In this document: positions 8,421 to 37,414 of the stretch, piece after piece
How the letters are laid out: the number at the start of each line of letters is the position of its first letter
How positions within the stretch are numbered: position 1 is the stretch's first letter
Source of the DNA: Escherichia phage Ioannina
Length of the DNA: 45,270 nucleotides
Direction: 5' to 3' (one strand)
Sequence record: OQ589852.1
The notes under the pieces: model-generated
Told to the model about the DNA's origin: nothing
The model's input: only the letters and a program-made list of their open reading frames with translations
Database searches by the model: none
Position numbers and translations under genes: made by a program

Positions 8421-8882
8421 ATGAATCCTGCAATCATCGTAGCGATGCTGGCGGCGTTGGCTACTAAAGAAGACGAGCCAGAAGTAGAACAACCGGAGGC
8501 CGGAACAACCAGAAGGAGGCGAAAGAGGATGGCGGGCTTTGACTATCGGGCGTTGAAACGGAAAGTTAATCCGTTGATTAATAAATTTGGCATGAAGGTG
8601 ATGGCATCACGTCCAGGCGGCGTGGTGCGCGTGGGCGGCGAGGAAGTGGTGACGCCGCCGTTATCGTTTGAAATCGTCGGCCTGCGTGAAGAATACAAGC
8701 CGCATGAGATAGACGGAACGCGTGTCCTTTCCGGGGACGTTAAATTTTTATGCCAGGCTACCGAGCAGTTGCAGGTTGGTGACACGGTTAATCTGAATAA
8801 CATCGACTACCGCGTGGTGAATCCTAACCCCCTGCAACCGGCAGCTACAACAATGCTGTTCCAGTTACAGCTAAGGGGCTAA
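8421..8882 (+). CDS. head-tail joining protein (putative)
   Basis: About 153 aa from MNPAII with GAGG RBS; call by position only. Confidence 0.35.
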   Translation: MNPAIIVAMLAALATKEDEPEVEQPEAGTTRRRRKRMAGFDYRALKRKVNPLINKFGMKVMASRPGGVVRVGGEEVVTPPLSFEIVGLREEYKPHEIDGTRVLSGDVKFLCQATEQLQVGDTVNLNNIDYRVVNPNPLQPAATTMLFQLQLRG

Positions 8883-21991: not shown

Positions 21992-24016
21992 ATGGCAGCG
22001 GGTACACTTAACGTAACAAACAACAGCAAGGCCGTAACGGGGTCGGGCACGACGTTTACGTCATTGAAAGCGGGCGACTTTTTATCGCTGGTGGTGGGGC
22101 AAGTCCCGTACACCGTCGCGATTGAGTCAATCCAGAGCAACACGGCGCTTACGCTGGCGCTGCCGTTTGACGGCCCAACGTCTACCGGTCTGGCGTGGGA
22201 CTCCGTATCCCGCGATACGATGTCGCTGGCGACTATGGGTGTGACCGTACAGGCGCAGAAAGCGCTACGCATGTTGATTGCTGACGAAAGCAACTGGCGA
22301 GCAATCTTCGGCGACGCAGAGCAAATCAGCGTGACACTGCCAAACGGCACGGTTATGCAGGGTATGTCGTGGGGCTATTTGTCCAGCCTTCTAAAAGACG
22401 TCGATCCGGTTGAGCTTCAGAATATTGCCAACCAGGCGGTTAACGCTAAAAACCAGGCTGTAACGGCGAAGAACGACGCCGTGTCTGCTAAGAACGATGC
22501 GCAGACTGCGAAGACTGCCGCAGAAACAGCGCGCACACAGGCCCAGTCGGCTAAGACCGCCGCAGAGTCAGCACGTGACGACGCGCAGACGGCTAAGACT
22601 GCCGCAGAAACAGCACGCACCCAGGCACAGACCGCGAAGACCGCCGCAGAAACCGCCCAGGGTGCGGCGGAAGACGCCCGCGATGAGGCGAAGCAATATG
22701 CAGAGCAAGCCGGAGCACCATATAAGCAGGTATTACAACCGCTACCAGACGTGTGGGTTCCGTTTAACGATTCGCTGGATATGCTCGCAGGCTTCGCGCC
22801 AGGATACAAGACGGTTACGGTAGCCGACGACGAGGTTATTATGCCTAGCGACAAGGTGGTGTCGTTCAAGCGCGCATCAACGGCAACATATATTAACAAG
22901 TCCGGCGAGTTTAAAATCGCAGATATTGACGAGCCGCGGTTCGAGAAATACGGCCTGCTTATCGAAGGCCAGCGCACTAACCACATCACCAACGGGGGCG
23001 CTCCGGCTGCCTGGGGCCGCAGCACATCGGTTGGAGTGGTTACGGGTACAGATGATTTCGGTTTCTTGTATGGAAAGTTTGGTATCGGCCAGGGCGACGT
23101 GGGCAGTACGACTGCGCGTAACCTGGCTTCCGTAACATCAGTAAACAGTCTGGATACTTCCGGCGACGATAAGTATGTAACGGCGTCATGCCGCTTTCGG
23201 TCCGACAAGGATGTACGTCTTCGTGTGCGTTTTGCAGAAGGCGCGGATCAAGGCAGCATAGCTTTCTCTGGCGACGCGTACATTAAATTAAGCGATTTGT
23301 CCGTGTCTAAGACGGGTGTCGCGGCAGACCGCATTACCGTAGAAGTAGAGAAAGACGAAGCCACCGGATGGAATCGTGCGGTGGTAATGCTGCAAGCTAC
23401 CACGGCGCTGGTGAACGCGCAGATCCAGATCTCGCCAGTGAGCAGTTATGCTGCCGGTGATTATATCGAACTGGCAACTCCGCAGGTTGAGTTAGGGATC
23501 GGGGCGTCTTCATATATAATCTCCGGAACATCTCCAACCACACGCGCCAGCGATATGGTGACGGTACCGGCTAACCGCAACCTGTATAACCTGCCGTTTA
23601 CGGTGCTTGTAGAAGCGCACAAGAACTGGTCTAAGGCGCCGAACGCAGCGCCGCGTGTATTCGACACCGGCGGTAATCAATCGGGTGCGGCTATTATCCT
23701 TGGATTCGGGTCTGGCGCTATTGACGGGTATCCGTACTGCAACATCGGCAGTGCTAACGGACGTGTGAGTGAAAACGCAGGGCTTAAGCATATGGTTATG
23801 GGTATGCGTGTGAAAGAAAACCAGAACACTTGCGCGGTGAGTAACGGCACTCTTTCGACCGAATCTAAAACCACATGGACCTACCTGCAAGGGTCTGCAA
23901 CGCTGCGAATCGGCGGGCAGACCACGAACGGAGACAGACACCTGTTCGGGCACGTCCGTAACTTCCGTATCTGGCATAAAGCACTGACCGACTTACAAAT
24001 GGGAGAATTAGTATGA
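21992..24016 (+). CDS. tail fiber protein
   Basis: 674 aa; fiber-type N-terminal module, Ala/Lys/Thr/Gln coiled-coil repeats (AKTAAETARTQAQ x4-5), beta-rich C-terminal domain. Confidence 0.75.
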   Translation: MAAGTLNVTNNSKAVTGSGTTFTSLKAGDFLSLVVGQVPYTVAIESIQSNTALTLALPFDGPTSTGLAWDSVSRDTMSLATMGVTVQAQKALRMLIADESNWRAIFGDAEQISVTLPNGTVMQGMSWGYLSSLLKDVDPVELQNIANQAVNAKNQAVTAKNDAVSAKNDAQTAKTAAETARTQAQSAKTAAESARDDAQTAKTAAETARTQAQTAKTAAETAQGAAEDARDEAKQYAEQAGAPYKQVLQPLPDVWVPFNDSLDMLAGFAPGYKTVTVADDEVIMPSDKVVSFKRASTATYINKSGEFKIADIDEPRFEKYGLLIEGQRTNHITNGGAPAAWGRSTSVGVVTGTDDFGFLYGKFGIGQGDVGSTTARNLASVTSVNSLDTSGDDKYVTASCRFRSDKDVRLRVRFAEGADQGSIAFSGDAYIKLSDLSVSKTGVAADRITVEVEKDEATGWNRAVVMLQATTALVNAQIQISPVSSYAAGDYIELATPQVELGIGASSYIISGTSPTTRASDMVTVPANRNLYNLPFTVLVEAHKNWSKAPNAAPRVFDTGGNQSGAAIILGFGSGAIDGYPYCNIGSANGRVSENAGLKHMVMGMRVKENQNTCAVSNGTLSTESKTTWTYLQGSATLRIGGQTTNGDRHLFGHVRNFRIWHKALTDLQMGELV

Positions 24017-24270: not shown

Positions 24271-24340
24271 GAGGGTAAATCATGGTTACTAAAACAAACA
24301 TCCCAGCGGATATACGGCGCTGAAAAATTCTACTTCATCA

Positions 24341-25084
24341 TTGTCGTCTGACAAGATGGATAAGTCAGCCAATTTGTCGGACCTGGCAGACAAAACTGAG
24401 GCGCGAAGTCATCTTGGTTTAGGGTCAGCAGCCACGTTGGACGTAGGGGATAGCAGCGGAAACGCGATGAAGGTTGGTGATTTTGGATTGGGGCGACCTA
24501 ACGGCGCTAAGGTTTTCTATACTACCTCGCAAGACACGCTACTTGCTGGACTGGACCAATACGGTTTATGTGTGTTCAGGAACGACCTGCAGATCGCTGC
24601 GCCGTGGGATATATGGAACTATTCATCAAACCTGTTCTTCCGCGCCGGAGATACTTACAGTATGCTAAGCATACCGTTTGAGGCGGCTGGTAAGGTGAAG
24701 GTTTTCGGCGGTGCCGCGGGTTACGGGTGGAAGACAGGGCGAACACTGCTCGATAACACAACGACGACTATTGACACTAACGGATTTGTCAAGCAAGCAT
24801 CGCCGATTGTTAAAGTATTTGGTGATGGTAAATTTGAGGTTAATGAAGAGTCGAAAGGGGCTAGTGTAGATCGCATATCCGTCGGCGTTTATCGTATCTC
24901 TGGTGTTCTCGGTCTTAACTCAGATGCGGCCTGGGGTGGCGTAGGCGGTGGCTTCGAGATTCCGGTAGACATCAACAAGCAGCCGCGGGTGTGGGTTGAC
25001 TTCGAGGTTGAGCCTGAAGGGTCTATCATTCTTAAAACGTACCACCGGACACACGACACGGCTCCGTCTTTTGCAAAAACATAA
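24341..25084 (+). CDS. tail fiber-like protein (second fiber or receptor-binding module)
   Basis: N-terminal NLSDLADKTEARSHLGLGSAA motif is common in phage fiber proteins; Gly-rich beta C-terminus; start uncertain (TTG at 24341 or ATG near 24356). Confidence 0.5.
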   Translation: MSSDKMDKSANLSDLADKTEARSHLGLGSAATLDVGDSSGNAMKVGDFGLGRPNGAKVFYTTSQDTLLAGLDQYGLCVFRNDLQIAAPWDIWNYSSNLFFRAGDTYSMLSIPFEAAGKVKVFGGAAGYGWKTGRTLLDNTTTTIDTNGFVKQASPIVKVFGDGKFEVNEESKGASVDRISVGVYRISGVLGLNSDAAWGGVGGGFEIPVDINKQPRVWVDFEVEPEGSIILKTYHRTHDTAPSFAKT

Positions 25085-27954: not shown

Positions 27955-27997
27955 GTTGTCTCCAGGTATTAAAAAGGGCGTTCCCTTCAGAACACCC

Positions 27998-29070: not shown

Positions 29071-30713
29071 TTGCGGCCTCGCTTCTTCTCTTTCATATAT
29101 TCCATCAGTTCATCCTGGATGTCGCGCTTACCATCACGGCGGCTTGCCACTAACTCGTCGAGCGTGCCGCGGGCCTGGATAATGTAGACGAATACCGGGC
29201 GCGGGTGTCCGGCCTGCATCTGGCGCACCGGTCCGATACGTTCGACGATCTGCGCGAAGTGCTCAAAGTTCCACGTATCCGAGAAGATAGCGAGGTGGTG
29301 TCCGCCGTCCTGTAAGTTAAGACCGTGGCCTGCCGATGCCGGGTGTGCAAACATGATCGGAATCTCGCCCCGGTTCCACGCTTCCATATCCTTAACGCCT
29401 TGCTTGCCCTTACCCATTGCGACACCCTGCGGGAATTTCTTCTTAAGGCGGGCTAGGTCGTGCTTGTACTGGTAGGCCACAAGCAGCGGTGCGCCGTTAA
29501 GTTCTTCTACGATACTTTCCAGGGCGTCAAGTTTGGCGTCGTGGATTTTCTCCCACTCGTCGGTCCGCTCGCCGTCGTCGTCAACCTTATACACAGCGCC
29601 AGATGCAAGCTGGAGGCATTTAATCGTCTTAGAGGCAGCGTTGGCGGCCTCCACTGTTCCGCTTTCCAGTTCGGCAAATAGCTCGCTCTCGAACTGGTCG
29701 TAAATCTTGCGGGCTTTCTTCGGCAGGTCAACCAGCACCGGCGTGTAAATCGGCTTGTCACACCCGAAGTATTCAGCCGCGTCAACCGTTAGCGAAATAT
29801 CAGCCAGCTTTGCGTGAATCTCTTTTTCGGAGTTTTTCAGCGGGGAGTGCTGCATAGTGAAGCTGCCAGGCGCAACCGGCTTACTTATGAACCAGCGGTC
29901 GGTGAATGCTTTATAGCTACTGCCGAGGCGTTCGCCACCGTCAACAAACCAGTTCTGCCCCCACACATCCTTAAGCCCGTTGGGTGCTGGCGTACCGGTC
30001 AGGTTAATCCAGCGCTTGACGTGCTTATGTGCGATCGCCGCCAGTGCGCGAGCACGTTTACTGCCCTGCTTACTGCGGTAGCCTTTCAGCTTAGTGGACT
30101 CATCGGCAACAACGACCGTAAAAGGCCACTCCTCGCCGCAATAGTTCACAAGCCACTCAACCACATCATAGTTGATGCACACGACGTTCGCGCCGCTCTC
30201 AAGCGCTGTAATGCGGTCCTTCTCCGGTCCGGTGCCGTCTACTACCTGAAGCGATGAGAATCCCCATTTATCTTGTTCCGGGGGCCACGTACCGGACGCA
30301 ACGCGCAACGGGGCCAGCACCAGCACGCGGTCTTCTCCGTGGTTCAGGATGCCGGTCTGGAACATCTTGTTCAGCGCCCACATGGTAGCGCCAGTCTTTC
30401 CCGATCCCATCGTCGCCCAGATATTACAGCGGGCGTGTTTAATGATGAAAGACGTGATTAACTTTTGGTACTCGCGCCTGCGAAAACGTGCCATCTTGTT
30501 ACGCCTTTTCCAGACTTCTGTTTCATGGTGCCAATTCCTCGTCGTAGCGGTCCAGTTAAATTCGTGCCCCACATGCACGCCGGTCGCCCGGAAGCCTTTA
30601 AACTTCTGCCAGCACACAGTTAACGGCAGCGGCTCGCGCATTGCGGCGATATACCATACGCGATCGCCGGGTTTGCAGTCGCCAAGTGTGGTAAGGCGGT
30701 AATGTTCTTTCAT
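29067..30713 (-). CDS. SNF2-like ATP-dependent helicase
   Basis: Walker A MGSGKTG, DEST box (VVADESTKLK), LTGTPAPNGL motif III; start taken at MKEHYRL after GGAGA RBS. Confidence 0.8.
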   Translation of the reverse strand: MKEHYRLTTLGDCKPGDRVWYIAAMREPLPLTVCWQKFKGFRATGVHVGHEFNWTATTRNWHHETEVWKRRNKMARFRRREYQKLITSFIIKHARCNIWATMGSGKTGATMWALNKMFQTGILNHGEDRVLVLAPLRVASGTWPPEQDKWGFSSLQVVDGTGPEKDRITALESGANVVCINYDVVEWLVNYCGEEWPFTVVVADESTKLKGYRSKQGSKRARALAAIAHKHVKRWINLTGTPAPNGLKDVWGQNWFVDGGERLGSSYKAFTDRWFISKPVAPGSFTMQHSPLKNSEKEIHAKLADISLTVDAAEYFGCDKPIYTPVLVDLPKKARKIYDQFESELFAELESGTVEAANAASKTIKCLQLASGAVYKVDDDGERTDEWEKIHDAKLDALESIVEELNGAPLLVAYQYKHDLARLKKKFPQGVAMGKGKQGVKDMEAWNRGEIPIMFAHPASAGHGLNLQDGGHHLAIFSDTWNFEHFAQIVERIGPVRQMQAGHPRPVFVYIIQARGTLDELVASRRDGKRDIQDELMEYMKEKKRGRK

Positions 30714-30721
30714 CGTCATGT

Positions 30722-30748
30722 CTCCAAAAAGGCGGGACTAGCCCGCCA
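30722..30748 (-). terminator. minus-strand hairpin terminator/attenuator
   Basis: GCGGGCTAGTCCCGCC followed by TTTTT on the minus strand, between the Zn-ribbon gene and the helicase. Confidence 0.5.
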
Positions 30749-30967: not shown

Positions 30968-31246
30968 TTATGCGACCAATTCCGCAACCAATAAATCAGC
31001 GTCGTGAATGTTGTCGATTACGCGAACGTCGGCCCCGCGCTTCGCCATGCGCTCATGTTCACGTACCTGGTGCGGCTTCGGCTTACCACCGGGGCGCTTC
31101 ACTTCAACGAATACGACTCTGCCGTTGATGATGATAATCAGGTCGGGAGCGCCGGTACGCCCTTCCCATGCCATTTTACGGCAGAATCCACCTGCCTCTT
31201 TTACCTCTTTCATCAGGTGACTTTGCATCTTGCCCTCAGGAGTCAT
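30968..31246 (-). CDS. VRR-NUC domain nuclease
   Basis: 92 aa; GAPDLIIIINGRVVFVEVKRPGG is a PD-(D/E)xK core of VRR-NUC type. Confidence 0.65.
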   Translation of the reverse strand: MTPEGKMQSHLMKEVKEAGGFCRKMAWEGRTGAPDLIIIINGRVVFVEVKRPGGKPKPHQVREHERMAKRGADVRVIDNIHDADLLVAELVA

Positions 31247-33537
31247 TATTTTCTATACCTGTACATGATGTCGCCTTCAGCGGCGAGCGGGAAGCCCTTA
31301 GCCCACACCGGCAGATCGCACATTAACCGGCATAACTCTTCCGTCGTGTAATCGTCCGTGTCCGGCACTTCGGTGATTAATTCATCGTGCACCGACAGGA
31401 CGATTTCGTATCCCGCCGCTTCGACGCCAGGCATTGCCCATGCGAGAATATCGCGGCACAGCGCCTGTACAATGTTCTCTGTCAGTTTGCCGCCGTAGGT
31501 GTACTGGAAGCCCCACTGGCGCGTCGTCTGATTCTCGCCCTGATATTTAATGCGGGTGTTGGTTTTCTTCTTGCCGGTGTCTTCGTCAACTTCAGTAGTT
31601 ACTGACAGCGCAATGCCAGGATAGCTCATGATACGACCCGACGGCAACTCGACTTTCAGCCACCAGCCGGGCGCGTCTGGGTCGTCCCGCTCATCGTCAA
31701 ACGTCGGGTCGTGCTTAGCCTTCGTGCGCATGATTTTAAGCGCCTGTTTGCCGTCTGGACGCACGTTAGCACCGGCCCAGTATGATTTGCCCGGATTGCG
31801 GATTGCGCACAGCACAGCGTCTTCCAGTTCGGCCCAGAATCTAACCGTTTCCGGGTGGGACTCACGCCACATACGCTTGATCGCATCGCAGGTAAGCCAC
31901 ACGTTCTTCGGCAGGATGTAAGTCGGTCGCTCGTCTTTCTTGCCAGGCTTCGGCGGACGCTTCGCTTCATTAATCCTCGCGTACTCGTACCCGCGTTTCG
32001 CTGCGGCCCATATGTGATCCGGGAACGTGCCTTTCATCACGTCTGCCATCGCATACAGGTCAAGACCCAGGTTTTTGGCAAACTGCAAGAACGCCGCAAC
32101 GCCACCACCATAGCCGAGGCCCAATTCACAGGCCTTACCGATCTGGCGAAGGTCTTTGCGGTTGGCCTTGATATAATCCGGGTCGAGGCCGAACATCTTA
32201 CCGGCAGTTTCGCAATAAATATCGCGTCCCGCCTTAAAGACCATCAACGCAGTTTTCTCGCCCGCAATCCAGGCAAGGCCGCGTCCTTCCACGTTGGAGT
32301 AGTCCGCTACAACAAACTTCTTACCCTTAGCCGGGATAATGCAGCCGCGTACGGTCGATGCTGTCAGCTTAGATATGTCGTACGCCCAGTGTGCGGTCCC
32401 GCGTAATAGGGAATTGATGCCGTTGGTTAGCATGTGCGACCGGACCCAAAACGACACGTCGCTTTCACCATCACGGCGCTTGATCTTGCCTTCGTGGTCG
32501 TCGCTGTACTCGCCACGCGCCAGGTTTTGAGGCTGAAAACTTTTACCGGCCCAGCGCAATGTTCGTTTAGCACCACCATACTGAAGACAACCACGGCGGC
32601 GACCGTCAGACGACAGACCGTTAACGAGCGGATTGTATTTGGTCGACGCCGTTGATGACGCACCGAGGCGCATTTCAATCAGAACTTTGCCCTCGTCCGG
32701 GAAGTCCGGGTCTTCCAGCAAATCATTCAGTGTGGATTTCTGCGCGTTATGGATAGTGAAAGCTGGCGCAATATCTCGTAACAACGGCAGGAAATCATTT
32801 CCGGTCAGCTTACCGCCAAACTTCTCCATCGCTTCTTCTTTCAGTTCTTCCTTGTGCGCTTCAACGGCCTTGATGGCGGCGTAGGCCAGTTCGGTGTCCA
32901 CGTTGAAGCCGCGGTCATTGATCAACTGGTCAATTGCCAGTATCTGGTCTTCCTTCGGAGTATTACCCCAATCCGGGATACGCCAGTACACTTCACGCAT
33001 CGCGATAATATCGAAGCGTGCATACTTGAGGAATTTGGCCCACTCTTCCGGGTGAGTCTCGCGAGTGTAGCGACGGACTTTGTAAGTCTTCGGCGTTGGC
33101 TTACAGAATCGCTTAATCAGCGCCTTGCCCGCTTTATCTTTCGCATGTTCAGCGTCAACGCCCAATACCTGGCATTGCATGTCAAGGCTGCCGGGGAGGG
33201 CGTGGCGGAAGGCCATAATCATGGTGTCTTCGATCTGGCAAACCGGCAGGTCAATACCCCACTTCTCACGGATAACCAGGCGGTCAAACAGGAGGCCGTT
33301 AGCCATTACGATTTTTGCTTTCTTGCGGACTACCGCACGCAATGCCTTACGCAGTTCACTCGGCATCTTCGGCGATTCAGTAGCGTCCCACGTCTGAACA
33401 CGGCCTTCATCAATGGCGTAGGTGCAGATCATGATTTCCGTGGTTGGGTGTTCTGCATACGCGTATGCGCCGACCTTCTTCAGATCAACGCCGCTAAACG
33501 TTTCGGTATCGAGGAATAGTCGTTCGAAGTTCATTGT
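31246..33537 (-). CDS. DNA polymerase, family A, with 3'-5' exonuclease domain
   Basis: Exo I motif FLDTETFSG; Pol motif A DYSNVEGR; motif B RQIGKACELGLGYGGG; motif C SVHDEL; start at MNFERLF with RBS. Confidence 0.9.
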   Translation of the reverse strand, partial: TMNFERLFLDTETFSGVDLKKVGAYAYAEHPTTEIMICTYAIDEGRVQTWDATESPKMPSELRKALRAVVRKKAKIVMANGLLFDRLVIREKWGIDLPVCQIEDTMIMAFRHALPGSLDMQCQVLGVDAEHAKDKAGKALIKRFCKPTPKTYKVRRYTRETHPEEWAKFLKYARFDIIAMREVYWRIPDWGNTPKEDQILAIDQLINDRGFNVDTELAYAAIKAVEAHKEELKEEAMEKFGGKLTGNDFLPLLRDIAPAFTIHNAQKSTLNDLLEDPDFPDEGKVLIEMRLGASSTASTKYNPLVNGLSSDGRRRGCLQYGGAKRTLRWAGKSFQPQNLARGEYSDDHEGKIKRRDGESDVSFWVRSHMLTNGINSLLRGTAHWAYDISKLTASTVRGCIIPAKGKKFVVADYSNVEGRGLAWIAGEKTALMVFKAGRDIYCETAGKMFGLDPDYIKANRKDLRQIGKACELGLGYGGGVAAFLQFAKNLGLDLYAMADVMKGTFPDHIWAAAKRGYEYARINEAKRPPKPGKKDERPTYILPKNVWLTCDAIKRMWRESHPETVRFWAELEDAVLCAIRNPGKSYWAGANVRPDGKQALKIMRTKAKHDPTFDDERDDPDAPGWWLKVELPSGRIMSYPGIALSVTTEVDEDTGKKKTNTRIKYQGENQTTRQWGFQYTYGGKLTENIVQALCRDILAWAMPGVEAAGYEIVLSVHDELITEVPDTDDYTTEELCRLMCDLPVWAKGFPLAAEGDIMYRYRK

Positions 33538-33664
33538 TTCACCCTTACCACGGCCTCGGCGTTCTGTTTCACTTCGGCAACCGTGAAGTATTCGCCCAGG
33601 AATTTGGACCACACGCGCATTCCCGGTTTCACATCTTTAGCTTTAATTCTCATTACATTGTCCT

Positions 33665-33690
33665 ATGAAAAAGCCCGCATAAAGCGGGCT
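33665..33690 (-). terminator. minus-strand rho-independent terminator after the SSB gene
   Basis: AGCCCGC-TTTATG-CGGGCTT followed by TTTT on the minus strand, just after the frame-B stop. Confidence 0.6.
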
Positions 33691-33709
33691 TGAGTAGTGG
33701 GCTTTGCCC

Positions 33710-34482
33710 TTAGCGGCGTCGACGTTTACGTGGTGCTTCGTCTTCGTCATCATCGTCATCTTCATCGCGTGACTTGCGACGTTTACGCGGCTTATCGTCT
33801 TCATCGTCGTCATCTTCATCACGGCGGCGCTTAGACTTGCGCGGTTTTTCATCTTCATCATCGTCGTCACGACGTTTTGACTTTTTGGATTTACGCGGTG
33901 CTTCGTCTTCGTCATCATCCAGGTCGTCGTCAGAGCAATATGCACCGCGCCGCCACCGAAGGAATCCCCATCATCACGGAAGCGCATACCCAGCAGACCA
34001 CAGCCTAAGCCTTTGCCGTTGGTATTGTTCCAGGCCCAAATATCTAAGGAAACGTTGCAATAGCAACCGGAATAGATTTCCTTCCCTTCGATTTCGTCGC
34101 CGTCGATGGTCAGACCCTGCTCCGTCTGCTTCTCGCCTTCGGAAGTCTGGATGATCGGCTGTTTGAATGATTTAGCGTTGATATACAGCTTACCTTCAAA
34201 CTCTTCCGTTACTTCTTCACGCTCATCACCATCTCGAACGGCACATTCTTTCGAATCCTGCGCGTAGTGGCGGTCCATCCACTTATCGGCGTTCTTCTCA
34301 GACTTCAGTTTTTCGGTGAGCACTGCGCGTGCCGCCGCTTCCACTTTGTCCACCTGCGGATCTTCTTTATCAAGAATAATCACCGCACGATATGCCGGTT
34401 TTTGTCCATCCTGTTTAGGGGTATCACGCTCCCAAATTTTCAGGAAGCATACACGTACATTTTTCAGGTTGACTTTAGCCAT
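33710..34482 (-). CDS. ssDNA-binding protein with tandem acidic/basic C-terminal repeats; two halves in different frames
   Basis: N-terminal domain from MAKVNLKNVRVCF (GAGGA RBS) is open in one frame; the C-terminal tail (four DDDDEDE-PRK-KRR units) is open only in the -1 frame and ends at 33710 ahead of the terminator. Confidence 0.5.
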
Positions 34483-34578
34483 TTTCCAATTCCTCATTTC
34501 ACATGTATCGGGGTTATTAGAAGCCACCCCGTCCGGCTTGGTTGCTAATGTACTTGGTTGCGTTTCCGCGGTCAAGTG

Positions 34579-34812
34579 TTATTTATCAAAAAGTTTTAAA
34601 ATCAGGTCGAGATATTTGTGCAGCCACACCAGTGGAGGGCGGTGCACGTTGTTTTCCATCCAGTTCAAACAGGCTTCGTTATAGCCGTCGTCCCATAAGC
34701 GGGATGGGTGGCGAATCATCCAGGCCAGCGCCAGCAGACCGCCGCAGGTATGTACTACGAATCCCAGCGCCGCAAGCGGCAGCACCATAATCATTGCCAG
34801 AATCTTATTCAT
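34579..34812 (-). CDS. small membrane protein
   Basis: About 77 aa from MNKILAMIMVLPLAALGF; two predicted TM helices. Confidence 0.4.
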   Translation of the reverse strand: MNKILAMIMVLPLAALGFVVHTCGGLLALAWMIRHPSRLWDDGYNEACLNWMENNVHRPPLVWLHKYLDLILKLFDK

Positions 34813-36235
34813 CGCCCAAATCCTCGTCTCTTGCTTCTTGCCATTCCGGGCGCGGGTCGTCAACTGGTGCCAGGACCGGTTTCGCCGGCGCACGCGTGAT
34901 TTTATCTTGCAGTTTCGCCCACACTTTCGGTTTCTCATCCTTCAGCACCTTCTCGGCATCAGTAGGGCTGATTAATGATTCCTTGTACATCAGGTCGCGC
35001 TTGATCCGGGCCGTTGTGAATACTGCGATAACTTCGCTTTCATCCTTCCACTTACGCGCACCTTCACGACCAGCTACCAGCTTCAGGCCCAGCGCTTCGC
35101 CGTCACCGGCTAACACTGCTTTGAATACGGCAGCCTCGATCGCTTTGATGTGCTGGCGCATGGTTTCCAGGCCGTCGTAAGCCTTCTTCAGTTCTTCCGT
35201 GGTCATAGCACCGGCTGGCGCTTCTTTCTTTCCACGCTTCGCACGTCGGGCAGCTTTCCGGGCTTCGAGGTCCATGTTCAGGTCGTGGTTTTTGCATTCT
35301 TCCTCGGCGGCAATGCTTACATCGTCGCCCAGGTCTTCGTCGGTTGCCGTTGGTGGCGTCATTGTGTCGATGGCGGCTTTAGCGCGGGCACTACATTGGT
35401 CCGCAAATCGACACCACTGACACGCATCGGCGCTCGGACGGAAGTCTGCACGGGTGAGATTCTTCTTACCCTTAGCGAGGGCATCCAGGGCGGCTACTGC
35501 GCGTTTTGCTGCGTACTTGGCGAAGATTTCCAGTGCTTCCACCGAAATATCCCACTCCGACGCCCCGCCGCAATACGGCTGGAATATGACCAGGCGCACG
35601 GTTGTTATGTCGTACATCTTTTGCAGCTTGCGCAGCAGTCCGAGCGCATACAGCATAAGCTGTTTGTTCTCTTTCGCCTCGACCTTATGGCGTCCGGTCT
35701 TCAGGTCGCCCACAATGAGCATGTACGTGCCGTCGGTCTTCTTCATTACCATAACCATATCGGCAGTACCGAAGGTCTTGATCGCTTCGCCGTCAATCTC
35801 GTAGCCTTTGTGCAGGACGCGAGTCAGATCCGCGCGCATCTCAAGCTGGACAAACTCGGCAACTTCAAGCAGCGGTCGCCAGTGGTCGATGTACGCGTCG
35901 CACTGTTTCACCATGTCGTCAGTTACCAGGATGGCGTCCTTAGGTGCTTTCGCTGCCGCTTTAACTGGTCCTTTACCCTGATTTTCGACGTAGCACCCTT
36001 TATATGTCTTCGCCGTGATGTGGTCTTCGCCTGCAATGATGCGGTTTAGTACCACTTCAGATACGGTGTGCATACTCGTACCGTTGATCGCGGCTTGCCC
36101 GGATTCGTTCGGAATACCTTTCTCCACCACCAGGGCGGCGGGACACCCCATCCATTTTTTAGCGCCGGATGGGCCGAGTAATGAGTGTTCTGTATTACTG
36201 CCGGATTGCGTCTTGCGCTTCGCTTTGATAGCCAT
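34805..36235 (-). CDS. Cas4-like PD-(D/E)xK exonuclease with Fe-S Cys cluster and long C-terminal extension
   Basis: N-terminal Cys plus GDLKTGRHK and QLMLYALGL core motifs and C-x2-C-x5-C (CQWCRFADQC); about 200 aa charged C-terminal region of unknown role. Confidence 0.65.
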   Translation of the reverse strand: MAIKAKRKTQSGSNTEHSLLGPSGAKKWMGCPAALVVEKGIPNESGQAAINGTSMHTVSEVVLNRIIAGEDHITAKTYKGCYVENQGKGPVKAAAKAPKDAILVTDDMVKQCDAYIDHWRPLLEVAEFVQLEMRADLTRVLHKGYEIDGEAIKTFGTADMVMVMKKTDGTYMLIVGDLKTGRHKVEAKENKQLMLYALGLLRKLQKMYDITTVRLVIFQPYCGGASEWDISVEALEIFAKYAAKRAVAALDALAKGKKNLTRADFRPSADACQWCRFADQCSARAKAAIDTMTPPTATDEDLGDDVSIAAEEECKNHDLNMDLEARKAARRAKRGKKEAPAGAMTTEELKKAYDGLETMRQHIKAIEAAVFKAVLAGDGEALGLKLVAGREGARKWKDESEVIAVFTTARIKRDLMYKESLISPTDAEKVLKDEKPKVWAKLQDKITRAPAKPVLAPVDDPRPEWQEARDEDLGDE

Positions 36236-37305: not shown

Positions 37306-37414
37306 ACTAATTTAAAAAAAAAATCCCCGAAGCAAAACGCAACGGGGATAACCATAAGAGACAATGAGACTGGTTTTATTATTACACGCGCGCGCACCCG
37401 TTTCAATATACAAA

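Follow-up and report, generated by a model that had tools for sequence, protein, structure and literature searches.

The SSB gene of Escherichia phage Ioannina (sequence record OQ589852.1; 45,270 nucleotides, the whole stretch being called the window in what follows) is split over two reading frames because a single G, found in none but this sequence to be missing, is absent from a glycine linker at position 33948/33949. The split does not belong to the biology of the lineage, and the gene itself is already known, as is its family. The missing G most probably is an error of the consensus or of the assembly, that is, a length miscall in a short base run; such a technical origin is suggested by the other differences between the window and its closest relatives.

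The window is a Dhillonvirus, one of the E. coli siphophages of the HK578/SSL-2009a type. Matches to the 1-kb SSB region occur in 154 phage records, the best of them being 'Dhillonvirus LM40P1' (OZ035746) at 99.7% identity, followed by Escherichia phage rolling (96.8%) and Gluttony (91.4%), and over its full length the window shares about 98-99.6% identity with three LM40P1 assemblies. The SSB matches the Pfam family PF10991 (Enc34_ssDNA-bd, formerly DUF2815) with 109.2 bits against a cut-off of 26 (E 2.4e-31); the match places residues 3-192 on profile positions 2-170 of 176, almost all of it in the frame of the start codon (frame A) and upstream of the deletion. The protein also matches phrog_112 ('Gp2.5-like ssDNA binding protein and ssDNA annealing protein') over residues 2-254 (E 9.5e-55) and, at the sequence level, the solved structures 4KLK (E 5.7e-12), 4JG2 (E 1.2e-11) and 5ODJ, the Enc34 ORF6 (E 3.4e-8). 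No T7 gp2.5 chain figures among the PDB sequence matches to the SSB at E <= 0.01. Homology to the solved members suggests that the protein adopts the OB-fold variant of the T7-type SSBs, with its long helix. The tail has a weak PDB match to RNase E (4OXP, E 0.002), which is probably a similarity between charged low-complexity sequences, not homology. The gene is flanked upstream by a DUF2800/PD-(D/E)XK nuclease gene (ORF 34805-36235) and downstream by a family-A DNA polymerase gene (31246-33612); in relatives, these neighbours belong to the families PF10926/PF12705 and PF00476, respectively. To judge from these matches, the gene is an ordinary Dhillonvirus SSB of the Enc34/T7-gp2.5 type, normally carried as one ORF of about 257 aa.

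In the window, the SSB ORF lies on the minus strand and begins with an ATG at 34482, with a GAGGAA ribosome-binding site 5' of the start. The promoter upstream (Table 1) is a consensus match only, at 9 of 12 positions, and the alignment shows that the site is kept in relatives. Frame A encodes the conserved SSB domain for ~178 codons, up to ...DSFGGG in translation. Past this point it reads AVHIALTTTWMMTKTKHRVNPKSQ..., an M/T/K-rich sequence that crosses the terminator hairpin at 33691-33671, giving a product of 279 aa as the sequence stands. The -1 frame has a pair of stops, TGA TGA, at 33976-33971, is open from position 33970 onward and encodes four acidic/basic units, DDDLDDDEDEAPRKSKKSKRR, DDDDEDEKPRKSKRRR, DEDDDDEDDKPRKRRKSR and DEDDDDDEDEAPRKRRRR, which form a charge-block C-terminal tail with RKRRRR at the terminus, and its TAA falls 19 nt ahead of the hairpin. 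Folding gives the terminator an MFE of -21.4 kcal/mol over a 56-nt stretch (z -3.3), and the equivalent site of phage WF5505 carries a terminator annotation. A simple terminator scanner did not call the hairpin after the SSB gene, which was found by folding, because the stem occupies part of the T run.

All the elements of the two-frame layout that the earlier note had described on the minus strand are present. The TGA said to lie about 40 nt upstream of the units is the TGA TGA pair, 40-45 nt from the first GAC at 33931. The tandem repeat that it reported holds in part: the four units are clear in the protein, on which they were delimited, but the DNA is degenerate, and Tandem Repeats Finder, applied to the tail DNA, returned just 6-nt and 9-nt micro-periods and no units of roughly 50-60 nt.

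Table 1. Features of the SSB region and of the other altered genes of the window
Feature	Position	Strand	Description
Sigma-70-like promoter match	34547..34575	-	TTGACC, 17-nt spacer, TACATT; upstream of SSB gene
SSB coding part, frame A	33949..34482	-	N-terminal ssDNA-binding domain (Enc34_ssDNA-bd, PF10991) and start of Gly linker, to last intact Gly codon
Single-base deletion site	33948..33949	-	GG doublet to G on coding strand; plus strand CACCG-CGCCGCC
True SSB continuation, -1 frame	33710..33947	-	Rest of linker (GAYCS), acidic/basic tail, TAA stop 33712-33710
Four acidic/basic units	33713..33931	-	D/E block of 7-10 residues, x-PRK, K/R/S block of 4-9 residues
Intrinsic terminator	33666..33691	-	8-bp GC-rich hairpin AAGCCCGC-UUUAU-GCGGGCUU, then U tract
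Stop of frame-A read-through product	33643..33645	-	TAA; 3' of terminator, within next gene (its ATG at 33653)
Small ORF between SSB and DNA polymerase genes	33531-33653	-	40 aa in window, 56 aa in most relatives
Small acidic ORF fused to structural gene	8421-8879	+	Extra G at 8498, extra A at 8522, 24 nt apart
Tail-fibre-like gene, broken twice	24283-25084	+	Sites 24313 and 25075; downstream of main tail-fibre gene
Small gene fused to helicase	30494-30713	-	Site 30506; homologous to rolling gp10

The earlier note had named a frame-disrupting indel as one explanation of the split and alignment with the SSB genes of related phages as the way to locate it. Such an alignment demonstrates the deletion, its position at 33948/33949 and its restriction to the window. 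In the linker, aligned between the window and six relatives, the window reads GGT GGC GGC GCG GT, and every relative inspected reads GGT GGC GGC GGC GGT. The site is within the (GGC)n glycine linker, outside the repeats and 17 nt upstream of the first acidic codon, and the one base is the only length difference between the SSB regions of the window and OZ035746. The extra G is present in 22 of 22 related sequences inspected, each of which has one continuous ORF of 239-263 aa: phages rolling (259 aa), Gluttony (257 aa) and Bas85 (263 aa), the three LM40P1 assemblies (257, 239 and 243 aa), CHD5UKE2, WF5505, Shigella phage 1b, Oekolampad, Teewinot and Pride (243-262 aa for these six), two metagenome contigs with P0011 (257 aa; on one of them the gene is at 81-854 and has a P-to-T change), and eight more contigs with P0001. 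Inserting one G into the window yields a single ORF for a 257-aa SSB that is 100% identical to the OZ035746 protein. A single-base difference that restores one ORF, which the earlier note had envisaged at the level of reads, is thus seen among near-identical genomes, not at the read level.

Sequence collections give the same picture. The exact repaired protein of 257 aa has been recorded on 11 contigs, which come from independent Logan, ENA and NCBI samples, and it falls in a 90% cluster of 537 members, of which the 15 listed are 257-266 aa long; an exact look-up of the 279-aa frame-A product returned no record. In eight of these independent contigs, from Logan/ENA, the one-base gap is the sole difference from the window in the 81 nt around the site. 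A 35-mer carrying the deletion allele has no exact match in IMG/VR or in the JGI metagenomes, and these scans say nothing on the frequency of the allele, since the intact 36-mer is equally absent there.

The substitutions among relatives demonstrate the coding status of the -1 frame. Within the tail, the third codon position of this frame accounts for 7 of 7 substitutions relative to rolling, 32 of 49 relative to Gluttony and 32 of 39 relative to Bas85; the third positions of the D/E/K/R frame are the second positions of frame A. In the N-terminal domain the same third-position bias is found in frame A. By this bias, selection acts on the acidic/basic tail as the product and not on the M/T/K-rich reading. 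The assignment of the gene to the SSBs and of its true tail to the -1 frame, both made in the earlier note, was therefore right, as the PF10991 and PHROG matches and the third-position bias indicate. The domain has no nucleotide difference from OZ035746 over 525 nt (34482 to 33958), and in a tblastn search with 60 rolling proteins the SSB is the only gene of the window split across two frames, so that there is no sign of a decaying gene.

That search had suggested a generally sound assembly, a view overturned by other indels that appear in comparison with closer relatives; the rolling tblastn is blind to genes absent from rolling and to changes at gene ends. When the window is aligned with the three LM40P1 assemblies (four genomes in all), it shows 8 single-base indels that are private to it and have clean flanks; the private count is 0 for OZ035746, 2 for OZ035811 and 1 for OZ035780. 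All 8 are length changes in short base runs: the SSB deletion affects a GG doublet within GGCGGCGGCGG, and the other seven are G to GG, AA to AAA, TT to T, A6 to A5 (twice), T5 to T4 and T6 to T5. Six of them alter ORFs (8498, 8522, 24313, 25075, 30506 and 33948), and those at 30726 and 42231 lie between genes. At 24313, 25075, 30506, 30726 and 33948, independent short-read contigs are unanimous against the window, and phage rolling sides with the contigs wherever it can be aligned.

The genes hit are diverse. In relatives, the tail-fibre-like gene is unbroken, with an ORF of about 290 codons that is called as 293 aa and matches PF25670 (Phage_tail_C_2). At 24313 the window lacks a T (ATAT[T]AC), so that the product becomes MVTKTNIPADIRR followed by a stop, with the remainder of the gene in another frame; at 25075 the change from A6 to A5 truncates the C-terminus, which ends ...SFAKT instead of ...SFAKNIIDGVNDGDPVDIPSDAFISVRVNMP. 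Both bases are present in five independent contigs and in the three LM40P1 assemblies; rolling aligns at 24313 only of these two sites, and has the base there. At 30506, the change from T5 to T4, which is A5 to A4 on the coding strand, costs a 71-aa gene its stop and joins it, in frame, to the helicase, giving ...ETEVWKRRNKMARFRR where relatives have ...ETEVWKKA, a stop and a separate helicase start. At 8421-8879, relatives have a small ORF, MNPAIIVAML...EEDGGL with its stop, and a next gene starting MAGFDYRALK...; in LM40P1 and rolling, this small acidic ORF and the structural gene overlap in different frames.

A few further differences from the relatives were seen along the window. Intergenic runs differ in length at 30726 (A6 to A5), 42231 (T6 to T5) and 27971 (A6 to A5), and an A-run at 37314 is 10 nt long against 9-13 elsewhere, varying across all genomes; of these four sites the first two are private to the window, and its run length at 27971 recurs in one independent contig. 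The small ORF after the SSB gene carries a private in-frame deletion of 48 nt (…VKQN[DDIITITDGIYSLKGD]AEAV…). A Logan contig (L021) has a different in-frame deletion, of 21 nt, at the same place, and because two different in-frame deletions have occurred there the segment seems dispensable and prone to deletion. The main tail-fibre protein (21992-24016, plus strand) is 92.9% identical to that of rolling and only 63-75% identical to those of the LM40P1 assemblies; since LM40P1 provides otherwise the closest genomes, this pattern suggests that mosaic exchange has affected the host-range module.

The private indels bear directly on the origin of the missing G. By our estimate, indels placed at random in a phage genome so dense in genes would strike ORFs at roughly this rate, six of eight, and the private indels therefore show no sign of purifying selection. 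As read from these comparisons, the pattern fits base-run miscalls in the consensus, and not a viable lytic phage in which six independent frameshifts have survived. A sequencing or assembly error in a repeat had been among the origins raised by the earlier note; error is indeed the most likely origin, with 8 private indels against 0-2 in the other assemblies, but the site is the GGC linker and not the acidic/basic repeats. As a counterpoint, a GG doublet in a GGC repeat is a less typical site of error than the A5/A6 and T5/T6 runs.

A genuine frameshift mutation in this isolate is an unlikely alternative, although the deletion is present in the sequence as given. The mutant might make an intact DNA-binding domain followed by a nonsense M/T/K-rich tail, or little protein by way of a non-stop mRNA, and such a variant could be tolerated in the laboratory host or even be selected, for example as an escape from a defence that senses SSB. 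Phage SSBs are described, in references given in PMC12916289, as triggers of retron Eco8, so that loss or alteration of the SSB would be selectable in principle. Tolerance is made conceivable by the changes in length that the tail accepts, since it varies by whole units among near-identical isolates (239, 243 and 257 aa), and by the ability of Enc34 ORF6 to bind ssDNA without its tail (PMC5686142). The analogous tail of T7 gp2.5, however, mediates contacts with the polymerase and the primase-helicase (PMC5686142). Moreover, a real mutation would stand in the same sequence as seven further private single-base indels, five of them also ORF-altering, and six independent real frameshifts are improbable in a viable 45-kb lytic phage; nor does the allele occur in any other genome or contig examined. 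Were the deletion real, it would be a natural tail knockout of a T7-type SSB, and the role of the acidic/basic tail would be directly testable.

It is very improbable that the deletion is genuine and that a functional SSB is nevertheless kept, whether by a non-canonical -1 shift within 33970-33946 or because a tail-less or non-stop SSB suffices; a phage replicating on such a protein would imply that the conserved acidic/basic tail is dispensable. Programmed or unconventional recoding, in which a -1 shift by ribosomes or by RNA polymerase within 33970-33946 would join the domain to the tail, is rejected as having almost no likelihood: the -1 frame is open from 33970, so that a shift anywhere in this 25-nt stretch would give a near-normal protein, and there is a GGGG run at 33969-33966, but this is the only run in 33970-33946 and no homopolymer has the length that transcriptional slippage needs, frame A contains no X_XXY_YYZ heptamer from 34482 to 33900, the whole N-terminal domain included (the earlier note had seen none between the TGA and the repeats), 0 of the 22 related sequences, all single-frame, has a two-frame architecture, and one missing base private to the window fully explains the split.

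In practice, the annotation should correct the frame split or flag it (as a low-quality/frameshifted CDS), and record neither two genes nor a recoding event. The seven other positions in the same sequence, 8498, 8522, 24313, 25075, 30506, 30726 and 42231, need checking.

The consequences of the missing base for expression can be sketched from the layout. Without one linker G at 33948/33949, the tail lies in the -1 frame and the original frame runs on through the terminator. Frame A reaches the terminator without meeting a stop, so that any transcript ended by the hairpin would be a non-stop mRNA, and the gene as written would probably yield little stable SSB. In the repaired protein, what is known of the family suggests that the N-terminal domain binds ssDNA within the replication module and that the Gly-rich linker joins this domain to a tail that is disordered. 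The analogy of T7 gp2.5 and Enc34 ORF6 (PMC5686142) suggests that the tail would modulate DNA binding and contact the polymerase and the helicase.

The C-terminus differs between the two readings: in frame A it is M/T/K-rich, and in the repaired frame it is long and charged, with alternating blocks and a basic end, RKRRRR. The number of units and the lengths of the blocks vary in frame among the Dhillonvirus relatives, for a total of 239-263 aa. The number of units differs even within assemblies named as one species (239, 243 and 257 aa). The charge-block tail is the one mildly unusual trait of the gene; it is genus-wide and does not depend on the frameshift.

The SSB split bears a superficial likeness to programmed -1 ribosomal frameshifting, as in dnaX and the phage tail-assembly chaperone G/GT, in that the product would need two frames. 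Unlike these, it has no slippery heptamer, is not conserved in relatives and is due to a private one-base deletion. The proper comparison is with the other Dhillonvirus SSBs, among them those of LM40P1 (OZ035746), rolling (gp16), Gluttony (gp15), Bas85 (Bas85_0046), KarlBarth and Oekolampad, which are orthologues in the same position, with the DUF2800 nuclease gene on one side and a small ORF and the DNA polymerase gene on the other, and whose DNA identity is 84.3-99.7% among the 40 matches listed of the 154. The window stands apart from all of these in lacking the G at 33948/33949 and in having its SSB gene divided between two frames.

Beyond the genus, the Dhillonvirus SSB resembles T7 gp2.5 in its match to PHROG 112 and in its place in a replication module with a family-A DNA polymerase and a nuclease. 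It differs from T7 gp2.5 in the composition and the terminus of its tail, the T7 tail being purely acidic. The family is related to T7 gp2.5 via structure, Enc34 ORF6 having about 15% identity (PMC5686142). Enc34 ORF6 (5ODJ/5ODK/5ODL), shown by experiment to be an SSB and assayed for ssDNA binding by mobility shift, has an OB-fold and an unstructured acidic C-terminal segment, without which it gains the ability to bind dsDNA as well (PMC5686142). The two proteins share a layout in which the DNA-binding domain precedes a charged, disordered C-terminal segment (PMC5686142). In Enc34 this tail is short and purely acidic, D or E making up 16 of the last 29 residues (PMC5686142), whereas the Dhillonvirus tail extends over ~75 residues, is built of 3-4 units in which acidic blocks alternate with basic ones, and has RKRRRR at its end.
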